Shown here: one piece after another, positions 9,361-14,858 of the stretch
Layout: each line of letters starts with the position of its first letter
Numbering within the stretch: position 1 is the first letter of the stretch
Virus record (IMG/VR): IMGVR_UViG_3300022862_000263
Source of the DNA: a virus
Taxonomy: Duplodnaviria; Heunggongvirae; Uroviricota; Caudoviricetes
Length of the DNA: 22,529 nucleotides
Strand: one strand, 5' to 3'
Made by a program: the position numbers and the translations under genes
The notes under the pieces: model-generated
Seen by the model: the letters and a program-made list of their open reading frames with translations, nothing else
The model's database searches: none
What the model was told of the DNA's origin: nothing

Positions 9361-9807
9361 CTAGTGGGCTCGCGGGATATGGAAAATATCCACCCCGATG
9401 AAAATGCTTTCTGGCGCATTAGGCCAGCGCTGGCGGATGTCGTCGAAATTATGAGCTTCCCACAGCCTCAGGAACTCGATACCGGTCTCCTTGGAGGAGA
9501 GCGCAAATTTGATAGCTTCCAACGCTGGAGGTTCCAGCATGTACTTCTCCTTGGTGTCGATGATCGATTTCATCGCCACACGCATTTCATCCATGATTCC
9601 TTTGAGCTTCGCTTCGCCTTCGGCGCTTAAGCCGCTATCGCGGATCAAGACGAATTGCTCATAGGAGAATAGCGCATTCAAGGCCGTACCTACCGATTCC
9701 TGGTCATTGATGCTAAGCGGTCTCCCAACGTAGGATTTGAGGTTACGCAACTCATCTGAGGCCAGGCTGATGAGATTCGATTCAAGCTGGTTCATGGCTA
9801 CATCCAT
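9361..9807 (-). CDS. Phage-type hypothetical protein
   Basis: The C-terminal AIKFALS...GIEFLRLW...FDDIRQRWPNAPESIFIGVD module resembles one recurrent in phage proteins. Confidence 0.7.
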   Translation of the reverse strand: MDVAMNQLESNLISLASDELRNLKSYVGRPLSINDQESVGTALNALFSYEQFVLIRDSGLSAEGEAKLKGIMDEMRVAMKSIIDTKEKYMLEPPALEAIKFALSSKETGIEFLRLWEAHNFDDIRQRWPNAPESIFIGVDIFHIPRAH

Positions 9808-9825
9808 GGTGGCGACGGGGCGCTA

Positions 9826-9996
9826 AGGGTAACTACCCAACGAAGACAAGGGAAGCTGGAAAATAGACTATTTAGAGGATTCATCCCAAGCGCAGAGAAG
9901 ATATGGGAAGATCTGGTCAGTAAGGTGCCTACCATAAATCCGAAAAAGGATGTCTACTTGTCAGGACGCCTAGTTGATGAAGGGTTGAAACCATGA
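9826..9996 (+). pseudogene. Possible 3' remnant of a PIN-type toxin gene, coupled to the downstream ORF
   Basis: Start-less open frame RVTTQRRQGKLENRLFRGFIPSAEKIWEDLVSKVPTINPKKDVYLSGRLVDEGLKP*. Its TGA (9994-9996) overlaps ATG 9993. The family assignment rests on weak recalled similarity only. Confidence 0.3.
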
Positions 9997-10235
9997 AAGC
10001 ATTAGATCTATCGCCAGCAGCAATGGCAGTAATCCGCCGTTATGCAGAGGGTTCGGAATCTGCAGAGGCGGTCGCTTACACCCTATGGCAGGACAACCTT
10101 ACACCTGGGGAGCCAGACCCAAGGGCTGCGGATGTGATCTACTGGTCGAAAGAGCTAGGATGGGGCATTCCGACAGAGTCTGCTGAAGAGGCTATGAATT
10201 CTGCTCGAAAAGCGATGAAGCGATACGCAGGATAG
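9993..10235 (+). CDS. Small protein resembling HTH-type antitoxins of PIN/VapC-like pairs
   Basis: 80 aa with IRRYAEGSESAEAVA...AADVIYW...GWGIP...EEA. The CDS is well supported, the function only weakly. Confidence 0.55.
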   Translation: MKALDLSPAAMAVIRRYAEGSESAEAVAYTLWQDNLTPGEPDPRAADVIYWSKELGWGIPTESAEEAMNSARKAMKRYAG

Positions 10236-10338
10236 CGGCGCTTCGCACCCATTGGCCAAACCTTGATTTTTGGCGGCCTGCGGTACTGTATTTTTAGACA
10301 GTAGCGTTATACCATCATCCAATTCAAAGCAGGAGGCA

Positions 10339-11262
10339 ATGGATTTGGATCAGACTGTCGTTGTTATCGAAAGCGTAGAAGAGCTGTCTTGCAGACCTCG
10401 CTTCACCTCGTCGCTATCATTTCATCCCAAGAGTGAGCGCCGCTTTGGCACAGTCGTTGCGCCTTATCACTTTAGGGCCCCCATAGCTTGCGGTATCGAG
10501 TCGTGCCACACCCAGCACATGAAAGGGTACTTGATTACGACCAGTGACGACCTGGAGACAGGCATCGGCGTCGACTGTGGCCGCAAGCATTTTGGGGTGC
10601 ACTTCACCCGCCAGAAGAAGCAGATCGACGATGCTGTCCAGCGTAAGCGTCGGATCGACACCGTGATGCGTGCTGTGCAGGAGATCCCTGCCTATCTAGT
10701 GACCGTAAGAGAGCTCAAAAGCGATTATCAATACCTTACAGGCCTGAAGCGCAGGTTCATGGATGCTGTGGGGCTTCGGGCGTTCACTGAACTTAAGGAA
10801 CGGGCAGATCGCGGAAACGCAGTGATCACCAAGATGGTACCGATGACCAAATCTGAAGCAGAGGCACACTTCGCGACGACAAACCGCAAGAAGGGTGATC
10901 GTAAAGATTGGCCTGAGAAAGAAGTGCCGGTCGCCCGACTTGAGGGACTGGATTTCATCCGAACGAAGTTCACCGACATGCTGGTGACAAACCTTATCAA
11001 GCCGCTCGAGAATTTCGCGCTGACGAAGCCAGCTGACGTTGAGGCAATGCGCCCACGAGCTCTGCAGAACGAAGCGAAATGGATTGGTAAAGTACCAGGA
11101 GATATCGCTAAGGCCAGAGAGGTAATCCAAGCCGGCTATGCGTTCTTTACGTCGGAAAACCTAATGAAGCTGGTGTATCTTGAAGTGGACATTCAACCGC
11201 TTGGCCCAATGCTTCAAGATCTGAGGGATTCTGAGGCCAAGAGACAATCAGAGGCTAATTAA
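10339..11262 (+). CDS. Hypothetical protein with an N-terminal zinc-finger motif and a helical C-terminus
   Basis: AGGAGG RBS before ATG 10339. CGIESCHTQH...ETGIGVDCGRKHFG supplies candidate C/H metal ligands. Confidence 0.8.
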   Translation: MDLDQTVVVIESVEELSCRPRFTSSLSFHPKSERRFGTVVAPYHFRAPIACGIESCHTQHMKGYLITTSDDLETGIGVDCGRKHFGVHFTRQKKQIDDAVQRKRRIDTVMRAVQEIPAYLVTVRELKSDYQYLTGLKRRFMDAVGLRAFTELKERADRGNAVITKMVPMTKSEAEAHFATTNRKKGDRKDWPEKEVPVARLEGLDFIRTKFTDMLVTNLIKPLENFALTKPADVEAMRPRALQNEAKWIGKVPGDIAKAREVIQAGYAFFTSENLMKLVYLEVDIQPLGPMLQDLRDSEAKRQSEAN

Positions 11263-11361
11263 ATCGATGTATCGGTGGTCGGTGGTCGGCCACCATGACA
11301 GATATTGGCATTAGGTGGTTGCCATTGTTATTTGGTGAACTGTAGGAGGAGGGCCGTAGAT

Positions 11362-12021: not shown

Positions 12022-12034
12022 GGTAGGAAGCTAC

Positions 12035-12571
12035 TCAGTTGTTGGATTCCGAGAGCTCACGCGCAGCTATCTGATTTTCAGCCAACTCAAGGACGTTCTC
12101 AGGCCAACCTTCAAAAATAGTTTCCAGCCTGTCATTGGTAATGGCAATCCACACACGCCTGTTGCCCTTCGATCCAAAGCACAAGCCAGGATAATCCCGG
12201 AACTCGAGGTGGTAGACGTAGTAGGCACGTTTAAGGTTTGCGTCATCAGCAGGGCCGATCACGAATTGGTTGTGCGAATAACGTCGGCTGAATTTCTGAT
12301 CCATGATCGTGCACGTTTCCACCTTGTCGAACTCGGGCCACAGCAAGCCGAAGACCATGGCACCCAAGTTCTCCTCTCGACCATATCGAATCTTCATTTC
12401 AGGATCTGGATCGGTGGATAAGAATGGCAGCGAATACTCGCCCCAAAGGATATTCCTGCAAAGTGATGAGAGCCCTTGCCCTAGGCTCGTGATCCCGCCG
12501 TCGGACTGAACCATGATATCAATCGCCTGGGCTGGCATCTTTCCGGCACAACGGATCAAAGCTGGCGTCAT
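12035..12571 (-). CDS. Hypothetical protein resembling the phage HxDGYP family (degenerate motif)
   Basis: MTPALIR...IDIMVQSDGGITSLGQGL parallels MxTRALI...IYxHxDGYPxGxGxxL. RBS GAGGAAGA lies upstream. Confidence 0.65.
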   Translation of the reverse strand: MTPALIRCAGKMPAQAIDIMVQSDGGITSLGQGLSSLCRNILWGEYSLPFLSTDPDPEMKIRYGREENLGAMVFGLLWPEFDKVETCTIMDQKFSRRYSHNQFVIGPADDANLKRAYYVYHLEFRDYPGLCFGSKGNRRVWIAITNDRLETIFEGWPENVLELAENQIAARELSESNN

Positions 12572-12578
12572 TTCTTCC

Positions 12579-12998
12579 TCAATTCTTCAAATTCAGAGGG
12601 CGTCCGAGCATATCCGTGGCACGAAGATGATCGATATCGTCGAACAAACGATCATGCTCATCGATAATATCTACTGTCTCAAGGTACTGTATTTGACCGG
12701 GATATGCCCAAGCAGGATGTGGCTCAGCTGATTGTCCTTTAGGCCTGCAGATTAGGCTGAGCAAAGCATTGTTGCCCTCTGGATCATCGAGGATATCTCC
12801 AGCTATTTTCAGGAGCTCAGTTCGGCCAACCTGGGTGTCAGGATCGATTTTGCCGGAGTGTTCAGCAACTGCTTTCGCCAAATCCTCAAGGGAGAGTGCA
12901 GGCCTTGCGGAATGCATATGATTATCTCGATCTGCTGTTTTGATAGTGGGCGAATAATGACACAGAGTCGTCGAGATGTTAACCAGGCGCGTTTCCAA
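12579..12998 (-). CDS. Hypothetical protein
   Basis: 139-aa ORF (alternative start ATG 12917), in an operon with 12035..12571. Confidence 0.6.
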   Translation of the reverse strand: METRLVNISTTLCHYSPTIKTADRDNHMHSARPALSLEDLAKAVAEHSGKIDPDTQVGRTELLKIAGDILDDPEGNNALLSLICRPKGQSAEPHPAWAYPGQIQYLETVDIIDEHDRLFDDIDHLRATDMLGRPLNLKN

Positions 12999-13015
12999 GG
13001 GGTGACCACATCTGA

Positions 13016-13044
13016 TTGACCGCTCAGACGCAGCGGCATAAAAT
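13016..13044 (+). promoter_or_regulatory. Near-consensus sigma70 promoter
   Basis: TTGACC (13016-13021), exactly 17 nt, TAAAAT (13039-13044). Confidence 0.75.
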
Positions 13045-13050
13045 CATCAT

Positions 13051-13146
13051 AATTGCCGGCCAAAGAGAGCAGCACTCTACCCGGTGTGCGGCTGATACCG
13101 CTTGCTGTGATGTGTAAAATGGAACCGCCCTTCGAGGCGGTTTTTT
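13051..13146 (+). ncRNA. Candidate ~95-nt structured sRNA or attenuator/riboswitch-like leader
   Basis: Lies between a strong promoter and an intrinsic terminator with no credible ORF. Stems CCGG/CCGG, AGAG/CTCT and GCGG/CCGC. The loop GCAGCA can pair with TGCTGT. No known family recognised. Confidence 0.45.
13123..13146 (+). terminator. Rho-independent terminator
   Basis: AACCGCC-CTTCGA-GGCGGTT followed by a T run, ending about 10 nt upstream of the RBS of the next gene. Confidence 0.85.
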
Positions 13147-13168
13147 CTTGAAGCCGAGGAGGGCACCC

Positions 13169-13558
13169 ATGAGCAGCACTGGAATCACGATCCCGGATCG
13201 ATTTGCGATTATGTTCGCCAGGCGCGTGCTTAATTACACGGATGACCTGGTGCGCGAGCACTTTGAGCAGTCGCCACCATTCGAAGGCCAGACCCTAATC
13301 CTGTCCATGCAGCAGCACAACGTGAACAGGTATCGCCTGGTGAAGGTCGTCAACCCGGCTAGCGGACGACAGAAGCGGATCATCATCGATCATGGCGAAG
13401 CATTCGGCGGGGCTTCCTACTACCGTAGCGGGAAAAGCTGCTTTGCTCCCAAAGGTCAAACCAAGCTCCTGCCTTTTGTCGACTCGGTAGCTGCCAAGCT
13501 TTCCTATGAGCGCGATGTTATCCTGTCGGATGAAGTCCTGGCCCAGCTACTACCGTAA
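13169..13558 (+). CDS. Hypothetical protein (129 aa)
   Basis: GAGGAGG RBS at 13156-13162 before ATG 13169. Confidence 0.8.
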   Translation: MSSTGITIPDRFAIMFARRVLNYTDDLVREHFEQSPPFEGQTLILSMQQHNVNRYRLVKVVNPASGRQKRIIIDHGEAFGGASYYRSGKSCFAPKGQTKLLPFVDSVAAKLSYERDVILSDEVLAQLLP

Positions 13559-13573
13559 GGCGAGCACCATCCG

Positions 13574-14665
13574 ATGAAGCTTAAATCGATCACCATCAAA
13601 AACTTCAAGGGTATCGAGCACCGTGAGTTCACCCTCGATCCCGCGCTGACCATCATCACTTCTGAGCGCAATGGCGAAGGCAAGACAAGGATGCTGGATG
13701 CCGTCGGTCAGGCCCTGTATCCGTTCTTGAATGCGGTGAACAAGCGTAGCAAGCAGGGCGCGTTAAAGGCCGAGGAGACCACCTGGCGCCGGCCATCAGA
13801 GGGCCCGCAACCTGATATAGTCACTGAAATTCGCGCATCTAGCTCATTGTGGTCGACGGAGGAGATCTCTTGGTCTCAGACGCTGACGGTCAAAGAAGTT
13901 GCAACGACCACCTATCGCTACGGAATTCGTGAAGATCAGATTGAACGAGAGGGTACCCTGATCGAAGATGAAGGTACTTCATCACTCCGAACTATGGCGC
14001 AAGGTGGGGCTGCGAGCGGGGCAATCATGCCCATCGTTCGATATGGGCAGCTTGAGAGGATCAATTTCGACACGACCTTGAGCAAAGCAAGCATCAAGGC
14101 GCTGGCTGCCTCAAAGGCGCCTGGCCGGCTCAATAGCTATGAGTCCAGTCTCGGCAAATTCACCCTGGATGAATTTTTGATCTGGTACAAGCATCTGAAT
14201 GATGCAACAGGGAACGGTCTCGAGCTGGATGACGATCAGCGCTCTAGACAGCTTGCGTTCGTGCAGCACTGTGTAACCTCGCTCGTGCAACCGCGATTCG
14301 GGTGGCACACACTTCGGTACCAGGATGACGGCGAGTTTTTCCTTTACCTCCAGCACCCTGAGAAAGGTATCTTCCCGCTGATGCTGCTCAGCCGAAGCGA
14401 GGTTCAGTTGGTTATGCTCGCGGCTGACCTTGCTTATCGAACCTGCAGCCTCAACCCGGCAGTCGATGATTACACTCAAGTGCCAGGTGTCGTATTGATT
14501 GATGCTGTGGAGGCTGGGCTTGATGTCAACGGCCAGCGTGCGATTCTGCCTGCTCTGCAGAGCACTTTTCCTAACGTCCAATTTATTGTGACTACCAGCA
14601 GCCCATTCGTTTCGCTCAGTGCGTTACCAACGCAGCTGAGGATGATTTCAGCGCCATTAACATGA
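13574..14665 (+). CDS. PtuA-like (Septu/retron-associated, AAA_21/OLD-type) ABC ATPase with degenerate catalytic motifs
   Basis: MKLKSITIKNFKGI...RNGEGKT (Walker A), LSRSEVQLVMLAADLAYR...LNP, GVVLIDAVEAGLD...QRAILPALQSTFPNVQFIVTTSSPFV. The scaffold is unmistakable but key residues are changed. Confidence 0.8.
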   Translation: MKLKSITIKNFKGIEHREFTLDPALTIITSERNGEGKTRMLDAVGQALYPFLNAVNKRSKQGALKAEETTWRRPSEGPQPDIVTEIRASSSLWSTEEISWSQTLTVKEVATTTYRYGIREDQIEREGTLIEDEGTSSLRTMAQGGAASGAIMPIVRYGQLERINFDTTLSKASIKALAASKAPGRLNSYESSLGKFTLDEFLIWYKHLNDATGNGLELDDDQRSRQLAFVQHCVTSLVQPRFGWHTLRYQDDGEFFLYLQHPEKGIFPLMLLSRSEVQLVMLAADLAYRTCSLNPAVDDYTQVPGVVLIDAVEAGLDVNGQRAILPALQSTFPNVQFIVTTSSPFVSLSALPTQLRMISAPLT

Positions 14666-14736
14666 GGCAGACTACATCGTTGCCGCCGCAATAAAGCGGG
14701 GAGGGGCTGATGGGGCCGCAGCCGTATGTGCTCTAT

Positions 14737-14753
14737 CCGCCCAACTTGGGCGG
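14737..14753. repeat. Palindrome CCGCCCAA-C-TTGGGCGG
   Basis: Perfect 8-bp inverted repeat, with a related copy at 16000-16015. Confidence 0.6.
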
Positions 14754-14858
14754 CTGAACTGGCCTCTCACAAGATAGAGTAGGCCTGGCCGTAGTCAGCC
14801 ACGAAAACGGCAGTGAACCGTGTTGCGCTGTCCTAATGGGAGCCTAGCCAGGCTTTCG

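Follow-up and report, generated by a model that had tools for sequence, protein, structure and literature searches.

In the Septu defence system the ATPase PtuA acts with the nuclease PtuB, which is sandwiched by a pair of PtuA C-terminal extensions (PMC12819146). PtuA oligomerisation requires ATP bound between the Walker A motif of one subunit and the partner subunit, and a K99E mutant of PtuA is monomeric (PMC13376987). Type I-A retrons (Ec78/Eco7 and Ec83) carry a PtuA with the same ATPase head, a retron-specific N-terminal extension and a helical flap, together with a reverse transcriptase, msr/msd-type repeats and PtuB. A different layout is seen in type III toxin-antitoxin systems of the ToxIN type, in which a promoter is followed by a structured RNA, a terminator and protein genes that are reached by read-through. 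Here, we analyse a locus that shares features with each of these systems, at positions 13016-14665 of a 22,529-nt stretch of DNA (IMG/VR record IMGVR_UViG_3300022862_000263; this whole stretch is called the window below). The locus holds a promoter, a gene for a structured RNA, a gene for a 129-aa protein and a gene for a 363-aa PtuA-derived pseudo-ATPase. An earlier note on this DNA, made from the letters alone, had described these parts as one candidate unit with the RNA as sensor or ligand.

We consider the stretch to be a junction of three separable modules that occur together only in one small Pseudomonas megaplasmid lineage, a reading to which we give a probability of about 0.5. The apparent unit is read as a module junction because linkage of its three parts is confined to a single shallow lineage: RNA, 129-aa gene and ATPase co-occur in just two places, the window and L001. 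The latter is a contig of 20 kb that is syntenic with the window and is the source of P0001, a close relative of the ATPase. The modules would be an autonomous RNA gene of a so far undescribed RNA family, a 129-aa protein of Tudor/SH3-like type that stands alone elsewhere, and a fast-evolved PtuA derivative with the head fold and without the PtuB dock. The features of the locus are as follows.

13016-13044, + strand: sigma-70-type promoter, TTGACC-17 nt-TAAAAT, 10/12 consensus positions
13050-13152, + strand: structured RNA of ~100 nt (covariance model R2, 108.8 bits)
13056-59 with 13081-84, + strand: RNA helix P1 (covariation)
13064-67 with 13075-78, + strand: RNA helix P1b (covariation)
13069-74 (loop) with 13103-08, + strand: RNA pseudoknot (covariation)
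13088-91 with 13098-101, + strand: RNA helix P2 (covariation)
13121-13129 with 13136-13144, + strand: 9-bp stem of the intrinsic terminator, then a U run (folding)
13156-13163, + strand: ribosome-binding site GAGGAGGG, 8 nt after the terminator U run (sequence reading)
13169-13558, + strand: gene for the 129-aa protein, an open reading frame (ORF) with its ATG at 13169, a start with which the N-termini of homologues agree
13574-14665, + strand: gene for the 363-aa PtuA-derived pseudo-ATPase, starting 15 nt after the 129-aa ORF

The promoter and the two-gene operon of a 129-aa gene and a PtuA-like ATPase, both claimed in the earlier note, are thus present. The ATPase keeps the ABC/SMC-type head fold that it has in common with E. 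coli Septu PtuA (8EE4, 8EEA and 8SUX), along with shared sequence blocks that include VVLID and FPNVQFIVTT. The PADLOC PtuA model PDLC00278 recognises it at E = 3.6e-58, but only along profile positions 1-342 of 436, and a profile built from the ATPase and 39 relatives matches Septu PtuA 8EE4 over its full length at E = 1.4e-119. An AlphaFold2 (AF2) model of the protein (predicted local distance difference test score (pLDDT) 79, predicted template modelling score (pTM) 0.84) retrieves Septu PtuA (8EEA, 8SUX and 8EE4) with Foldseek at E about 1e-25 (best 2e-25, template modelling score (TM) 0.76) and the PtuA of retrons (9NNB, 9KJX and 9E90) at E about 1e-20. Against the NCBIfam PtuA equivalog it scores 116.5 bits, compared with a cut-off of 500.

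The difference from Septu PtuA lies in substituted motifs and in missing parts. In an alignment with 38 full-length PtuA relatives, the substituted catalytic residues that had been noticed before are confirmed and the list grows to six positions plus an insertion in Walker A. The Walker B glutamate, the H-loop histidine and the signature glycine, each present in 38/38 relatives, are replaced by Ala311, Ser342 and Ser275, respectively. The histidine at position 315 (37/38) is Gly, the histidine at 317 (38/38) is Asp and the tryptophan at 320 (38/38) is Gly. In Walker A, one residue (Arg32) is inserted and Ser stands in place of the first Gly/Ala, and the Lys-Thr pair is retained. The C-terminal extension is wholly missing from the ATPase, at a point after which 37/38 relatives have 49-72 further residues, and no remnant of the extension or of ptuB was found in the window, in L001 or in L054, the contig of a second PtuA relative described below. 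Judged from its sequence, the ATPase is most likely unable to hydrolyse ATP, and we infer that loss of the docking extension leaves it unable to dock PtuB.

Unlike in Septu, there is no ptuB downstream, and the ATPase is plasmid cargo behind an RNA gene and a small protein gene. The earlier note had reported no HNH or reverse transcriptase gene nearby, and this holds: Pfam detected neither domain in the 29 window ORFs scanned, and tblastn of three Pseudomonas PtuB proteins against the window gave nothing (E above 0.2). Type I-A retrons likewise have an RNA gene upstream of the operon, but the window lacks a reverse transcriptase, msr/msd-type repeats and PtuB, and its ATPase lacks both the retron-specific N-terminal extension and the helical flap. 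In addition, the RNA family of the window is also found without any PtuA, and the window RNA has no match among the retron or group II families of Rfam.

The RNA is a real structured RNA family that is not in Rfam, with four covariation-supported helices including a pseudoknot. It is laid out as a pseudoknotted 5' domain of ~60 nt, a variable A/U-rich linker and an intrinsic terminator. Across nine copies, 95% of the cells are paired and six pairs are altered on both sides; 0/500 shuffles attain the observed values, and slid controls pair 37-60%. One pair of P1 appears as G-C, U-A or C-G and another as G-C or A-U, P1b has an A-U to U-A change, and P2 has changes from C-G to G-C and from A-U to G-C. 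The pseudoknot joins the P1b loop GCAGNA to UNCUGU, and its variable pair (columns 25/58, C13073-G13104 in the window) occurs as five pair types (C-G, G-C, A-U, U-A and G-U). Since the alignment was fitted to nested helices only, and the pseudoknot could not enter the model that made it, the covariation of the pseudoknot is independent of the alignment fitting.

Hence, the structured RNA with a strong terminator that the earlier note had put at ~95 nt is upheld, at ~100 nt, by covariation and not by folding stability. By folding energy, the whole window RNA does not surpass shuffled sequence (z = -0.53), and thermodynamic stability was dropped as evidence in favour of covariation, with z-scores for the 5' domain of -0.5 to +0.4. 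Minimum free energy folds give P1, P1b and P2 in 3/5 copies folded. The terminator stem has an energy of -12.9 kcal/mol (z = -2.8); an automated terminator scan missed it, and a G-U extension of the stem may have consumed the U run. Two candidate features were rejected. A first P2 proposed by RNAalifold (UGCGGC with GCUGUG) is broken in the copy at 540 kb of the P. silesiensis plasmid pPL1 by a G-to-A change that suits the pseudoknot, and a 13-codon ORF that overlaps the window terminator was considered as a leader peptide, but the same ATG in pPL1 is directly followed by a stop.

No Rfam family matches the RNA at gathering thresholds, and permissive E-values yield chance-level rows only. The nearest entry, the Pseudomonas small RNA (sRNA) P9 (RF00624), reaches 15.8 bits compared with a gathering score of 43 (E = 0.34), and the likeness consists in being a small Pseudomonas RNA with a terminator. 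The window and L001 copies differ by 3 substitutions over 101 nt, compared with 27% difference at synonymous sites (p = 8e-11). Two of the three substitutions are uncompensated changes that weaken the L001 terminator to -5.4 kcal/mol. The promoter spacer (window 13022-13038) holds an inverted repeat of CCGCT, 7 nt and AGCGG that is mostly lost in L001 and may be an operator or a chance occurrence.

To find further members, we started from a distant blastn hit in pPL1 and continued with covariance models, which added a second pPL1 copy, a copy on a plasmid of P. serbica and four more from other Pseudomonas genomes. The resulting nine copies, roughly six of them distinct, lie in Pseudomonas megaplasmids and in variable regions of chromosomes, in the following contexts.

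Window and L001: RNA followed by the 129-aa gene, then the ATPase gene
pPL1 at 746 kb: RNA with a 162-aa gene and a 422-aa gene
P. serbica plasmid: RNA with a homologue of the 422-aa gene
pPL1 at 540 kb and genome G012: RNA with a convergent gene only
Genomes G104 (L034, G104:C50), G011 (L035, G011:C5) and G095 (L037, G095:C35): RNA ~70 nt downstream of a conserved gene of 351-361 aa

A sigma-70-like promoter (8-11 of 12 positions) is present in 9/9 copies and ends 1-13 nt before the start of the RNA model, and a terminator hairpin is present in 8/8 complete copies, in weakened form in L001. The terminator sequence varies across copies and the hairpin is kept, and junctions and loops are conserved. 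With its own promoter and a Rho-independent terminator, the gene is predicted to give the discrete short transcript expected of a trans-acting sRNA gene. The genes downstream of the copies have no common function, so the related same-strand genes expected behind a cis-acting leader are not seen. Seven of the nine copies adjoin unrelated genes, two of these facing a convergent gene, which speaks against the earlier proposal of the RNA as the sensor of a unit. With contexts that differ among copies, the RNA behaves as an accessory-genome RNA gene of Pseudomonas that stands on its own, and not as a leader dedicated to this operon.

Four exact-pattern scans for the RNA core in genome and metagenome contigs found the P. 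serbica plasmid only, blastn of the copies found pPL1 only among plasmids and nothing among phages, and model R2 gave no convincing copy on the megaplasmids of P. frederiksbergensis, P. aeruginosa (two) and P. alcaligenes. Around the copies, the gene of 351-361 aa has a weak PemK/MazF-like match (24.8 bits), the surroundings in G104 include rpoD, a few kb away, and a NERD nuclease gene, and those in G011 a Xre-RES toxin-antitoxin pair and an SMC-like ATPase. FSQDLGL is the C-terminus of the 422-aa protein encoded downstream of two copies (L004:4671-5939 and L016:154-1422) and also of a 113-aa ORF divergent from the pPL1 540-kb copy (L007:1114-1455).

The second module is predicted to be a small beta-barrel of Tudor/chromo/SH3 type. 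Its AF2 model (pLDDT 84.5) shows a small beta-barrel with two N-terminal helices, and fold matches are weak (Z at most 5, TM at most 0.48); the best from VIA-align, Z = 5.0 to chromo/Tudor barrels, lies inside the stated noise range of the tool. Foldseek against the PDB returned nothing at E of 0.001 or better, and the protein has no match in Pfam, PADLOC, NCBIfam or PHROG and no usable hit in the ESM Atlas. There are 26 homologues, mostly on Pseudomonas megaplasmids and also in Aeromonas. Outside the window and L001, no locus examined pairs a member of the family with the RNA or with the ATPase. The loci include P. serbica, a second site on what is apparently the window's own contig, and plasmids of P. 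silesiensis, P. frederiksbergensis, P. aeruginosa and P. alcaligenes. Between window and L001 the 129-aa gene has a ratio of nonsynonymous to synonymous change (dN/dS) of 0.094 (binomial p = 4e-11 against neutrality). Complex prediction of the protein with the ATPase gave a median of 0.31 against a mark of 0.32, with runs at 0.06, 0.31 and 0.63, and counts neither for nor against an interaction. Several homologues adjoin UvrD-like or DEAD-box helicase genes (L028 and L030, on P. aeruginosa and P. alcaligenes plasmids, and L002 and L029), and the P. aeruginosa and Aeromonas forms are extended at the N-terminus by a Cys-rich part that resembles a zinc ribbon.

The 129-aa gene and the ATPase gene are probably transcribed by read-through of the RNA's terminator, because the 20 nt from terminator to ATG leave no room for a conventional promoter. 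The weaker terminator of L001, within an RNA that is otherwise almost unchanged, supports this. Given read-through, the RNA gene would therefore act as a constitutive attenuator, and we do not take it for a dedicated sensor. Soil metatranscriptomes of four studies include contigs that match the locus at 100% across the RNA, both genes and the 129-aa/ATPase junction (depth 2-5), and one of these contigs begins 66 nt upstream of the promoter; they were not used as evidence of transcription or read-through, given possible DNA carry-over. The order of elements is that of type III toxin-antitoxin systems, but the window RNA is a single pseudoknotted unit and not a tandem array (no tandem repeat in 12900-13300), copies of the RNA adjoin unrelated genes or none, and the downstream proteins have no endoribonuclease family match.

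The lineage of the ATPase is rare. A word-indexed search of 5.8 billion clusters returned one close relative, P0001 (363 aa, 90% identity), which was also alone at E of 1e-30 or better in an exhaustive HMMER search of 1.84 billion representatives. Window and L001 copies compare at a dN/dS of 0.145 at dS 0.31 (binomial test against neutrality, p = 3e-18) with an intact frame in both. On this comparison of sequences the ATPase is kept by purifying selection and is not decaying; the earlier note had named a dN/dS near 1 as the mark of decay.

The next-best exhaustive hit, P0148 (361 aa, 28% identity), likewise lacks the tail and has dead motifs. Its Walker B glutamate is Met, its H-loop histidine is Thr, its HLH block is KIA and its first Walker A glycine is Ser, and in the alignment its end coincides with that of the window ATPase. 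The P0148 gene is complete and lies at 4508-5593 of L054, a 5.7-kb contig (JGI 3300046515) with small genes unrelated to those of the window and with neither the RNA nor the 129-aa gene adjacent. P0148 is probably megaplasmid-borne, as a neighbouring gene (284 aa, DGKHRR motif) has its best plasmid matches, at 65% identity, on Pseudomonas megaplasmids of ~0.9 Mb. It has no close relatives. In a quick maximum-likelihood tree, P0148 and the window ATPase form a clade (Shimodaira-Hasegawa-like approximate likelihood ratio test (SH-aLRT) 99) inside a group that holds Pseudomonas Septu PtuA, and the branch of the window ATPase lineage is about three to four times as long as those of canonical lineages from the same node.

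Among 401 Pseudomonas genomes, 97 match the ATPase and about 25 have a full-length PtuA (best 33% identity, frames of at least 430 aa); PtuB follows PtuA in 10/10 canonical Pseudomonas loci inspected. No other short or dead PtuA copy appeared in those 401 genomes, and neither dead PtuA protein has a close copy in PLSDB by tblastn. A 381-aa PtuA-like protein behind a NYN gene (P0016) that looked like another short form was set aside as probably cut by contig ends. P0002 (31% identity), among the closest full-length PtuA relatives, lies in a defence island (L043:444-9410) with a SNF2/NOV_C helicase, the PtuA, an overlapping 188-aa gene that is probably PtuB, and DUF1156 and DUF499 genes.

The window appears to belong to a megaplasmid of Pseudomonas type. 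The 129-aa product has an identical protein on record from a metagenome contig of 649,744 bp, a paralogue with 66% identity lies on a contig of equal length, ERZ27256738 k141_105409, which is apparently the window's own contig, and relatives of the 129-aa protein are carried by Pseudomonas plasmids of 0.2-1.2 Mb. Comparison with L001 shows two further features next to the locus.

12027-12977, - strand: indel segment of ~950 bp with two minus-strand genes, not in L001 (blastn of L001 against the window)
14677-14847, + strand: 3' remnant of a third operon gene, with no + strand ORF listed there in the window

The third gene is intact in L001 (L001:7103-7537), where it starts 10 nt after the ATPase gene and encodes a 144-aa protein with an N-terminal membrane helix and no family match. 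In the window, a deletion of ~260 bp has removed its start, and the last ~170 bp remain. The ~950-bp segment, whose genes encode 178 aa and about 112-139 aa, stops 39 bp upstream of the RNA promoter, so that the RNA gene borders an indel hotspot. Further upstream, L001 has a HipB-HipA toxin-antitoxin pair and a 346-aa gene (L001:1842-4691), and at 9795-11318 the window has a 330-aa gene in place of the HipBA region (phrog_7003, E = 2.5e-51).

Tentatively, the single most likely job of the pseudo-ATPase, though less likely than not, would be that of a dominant-negative anti-Septu decoy. It would work without catalysis, through protein contacts, and would co-assemble with the Septu-type PtuA of a Pseudomonas host. 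The mixed oligomers would have too few docking extensions to hold or control PtuB, and Septu defence against the plasmid would thereby be blunted. Such a decoy is consistent with the location on a mobile element, the tail-less dead architecture and the abundance of Septu in Pseudomonas, in which full-length PtuA with PtuB is a possible target. Several observations weigh against such a decoy. Identity to any full-length PtuA is only 28-33%, so specific co-assembly with host PtuA is doubtful. Walker A and the signature, which are the ATP-contacting motifs of the class, are both altered, and oligomerisation needs ATP. Three sequences in collections of about 15 billion proteins are unlike a successful anti-defence gene, and the L001 operon, with its third, membrane-anchored gene, suits a multi-protein module better. 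The dN/dS estimate rests on the single sequence pair of window and L001, and the two dead-lineage branches, at 1.9 and 2.4 substitutions per site, may be grouped by long-branch attraction. Finally, a weak promoter-like site inside the RNA (13092-13120, 9/12 positions) could drive the operon instead of read-through. The remaining odds for the pseudo-ATPase go to a repurposed scaffold or other non-catalytic roles with other partners.

Some of these observations recur in the alternatives. We think it rather unlikely that the 129-aa protein and the pseudo-ATPase, with the membrane protein of L001, form a new multi-protein module, for defence or for some other plasmid function, in which the PtuA head is sensor or scaffold and the neighbours encode the effector in place of PtuB. 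Window and L001 agree in gene order and in the close spacing of the genes (15 nt and 10 nt), both genes are under purifying selection, and ABC-type ATPases of this class pair with many effectors (Septu, PARIS and Gabija). However, the 129-aa family lives without the ATPase at all other loci seen and belongs to no PADLOC, Pfam, NCBIfam or PHROG family, the membrane protein gene is lost in the window, and the neighbours of P0148 are unrelated. A similarly doubtful proposal is a small, old family of PtuA pseudo-enzymes on Pseudomonas megaplasmids, devoid of catalysis and of the PtuB dock, whose members would enter the host Septu complex as poison subunits, with the RNA separately serving as a new switch that responds to a ligand or protein, or as a regulatory sRNA, in control of accessory genes. 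That the ATPase is a decaying, functionless remnant of a Septu operon without ptuB and the ptuA 3' end would account for the loss of catalytic residues, docking extension and partner gene, for the very long branch and for the truncated third gene in the window; we regard it as very improbable in view of the low dN/dS with intact frames in both copies, an ORF that stays open despite the distance to all relatives, the lack of any remnant of the lost parts, and the same architecture in P0148. That the parts co-evolved as one unit, with the RNA detecting plasmid entry or phage stress and allowing a dominant-negative PtuA to be expressed only then, is scarcely credible. The three parts are adjacent and all kept in L001, and the RNA is more conserved than synonymous sites, but the RNA family occurs mostly without these genes, the 129-aa family occurs without the RNA and P0148 without both, which is the pattern that the earlier note itself had said would count against its unit; the L001 RNA has a damaged terminator, and neither a reverse transcriptase gene nor a retron-like repeat links the RNA to PtuA biology.

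One further proposal touches the RNA alone and fits with every reading of the ATPase: the RNA would be a riboswitch acting in cis, or an attenuator under protein control, whose 5' domain binds a metabolite or a plasmid or host protein and sets read-through into the accessory genes downstream. We regard it as possible, though not as the expected outcome. The conserved junctions and loops, the covarying helices, the variable linker and a terminator that keeps its hairpin are what such an element would show. The transcript would start a few nt before P1 in every copy, going by the predicted promoters, and in 6/8 complete copies the terminator is followed within about 180 nt by the start of an ORF on the same strand, the gap being 20 nt in the window. 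On the other hand, the pPL1 540-kb copy and that of G012 are followed only by a convergent gene, and the downstream genes share no function. Nor was an alternative pairing with the terminator found that holds across copies: in the window, the P2 arms have short complementarities to the terminator arms, but these are not kept in G012, where CCG in P2 has become CCC and the terminator arm is unchanged. The 3' strand of the pseudoknot lies 20-30 nt from the terminator and does not overlap it.

The locus carries a negative lesson, namely that adjacency here does not make a system. The RNA is a candidate new class of regulatory RNA, confined to the Pseudomonas accessory genome and searchable by covariance model. 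Since selection appears to have kept a PtuA derivative that lacks catalytic residues and the PtuB dock, the PtuA head may have a function of its own. The sole Septu counter-measure named in a review is the supply of tRNA-Tyr (PMC13728456). If the pseudo-ATPase does interfere with Septu, Septu would gain its first protein inhibitor and plasmids their first 'dead homologue' with an anti-defence role, and dominant-negative homologues would join the known strategies of counter-defence. If its function is another one, it would show that defence ATPases can be recycled as non-catalytic parts.

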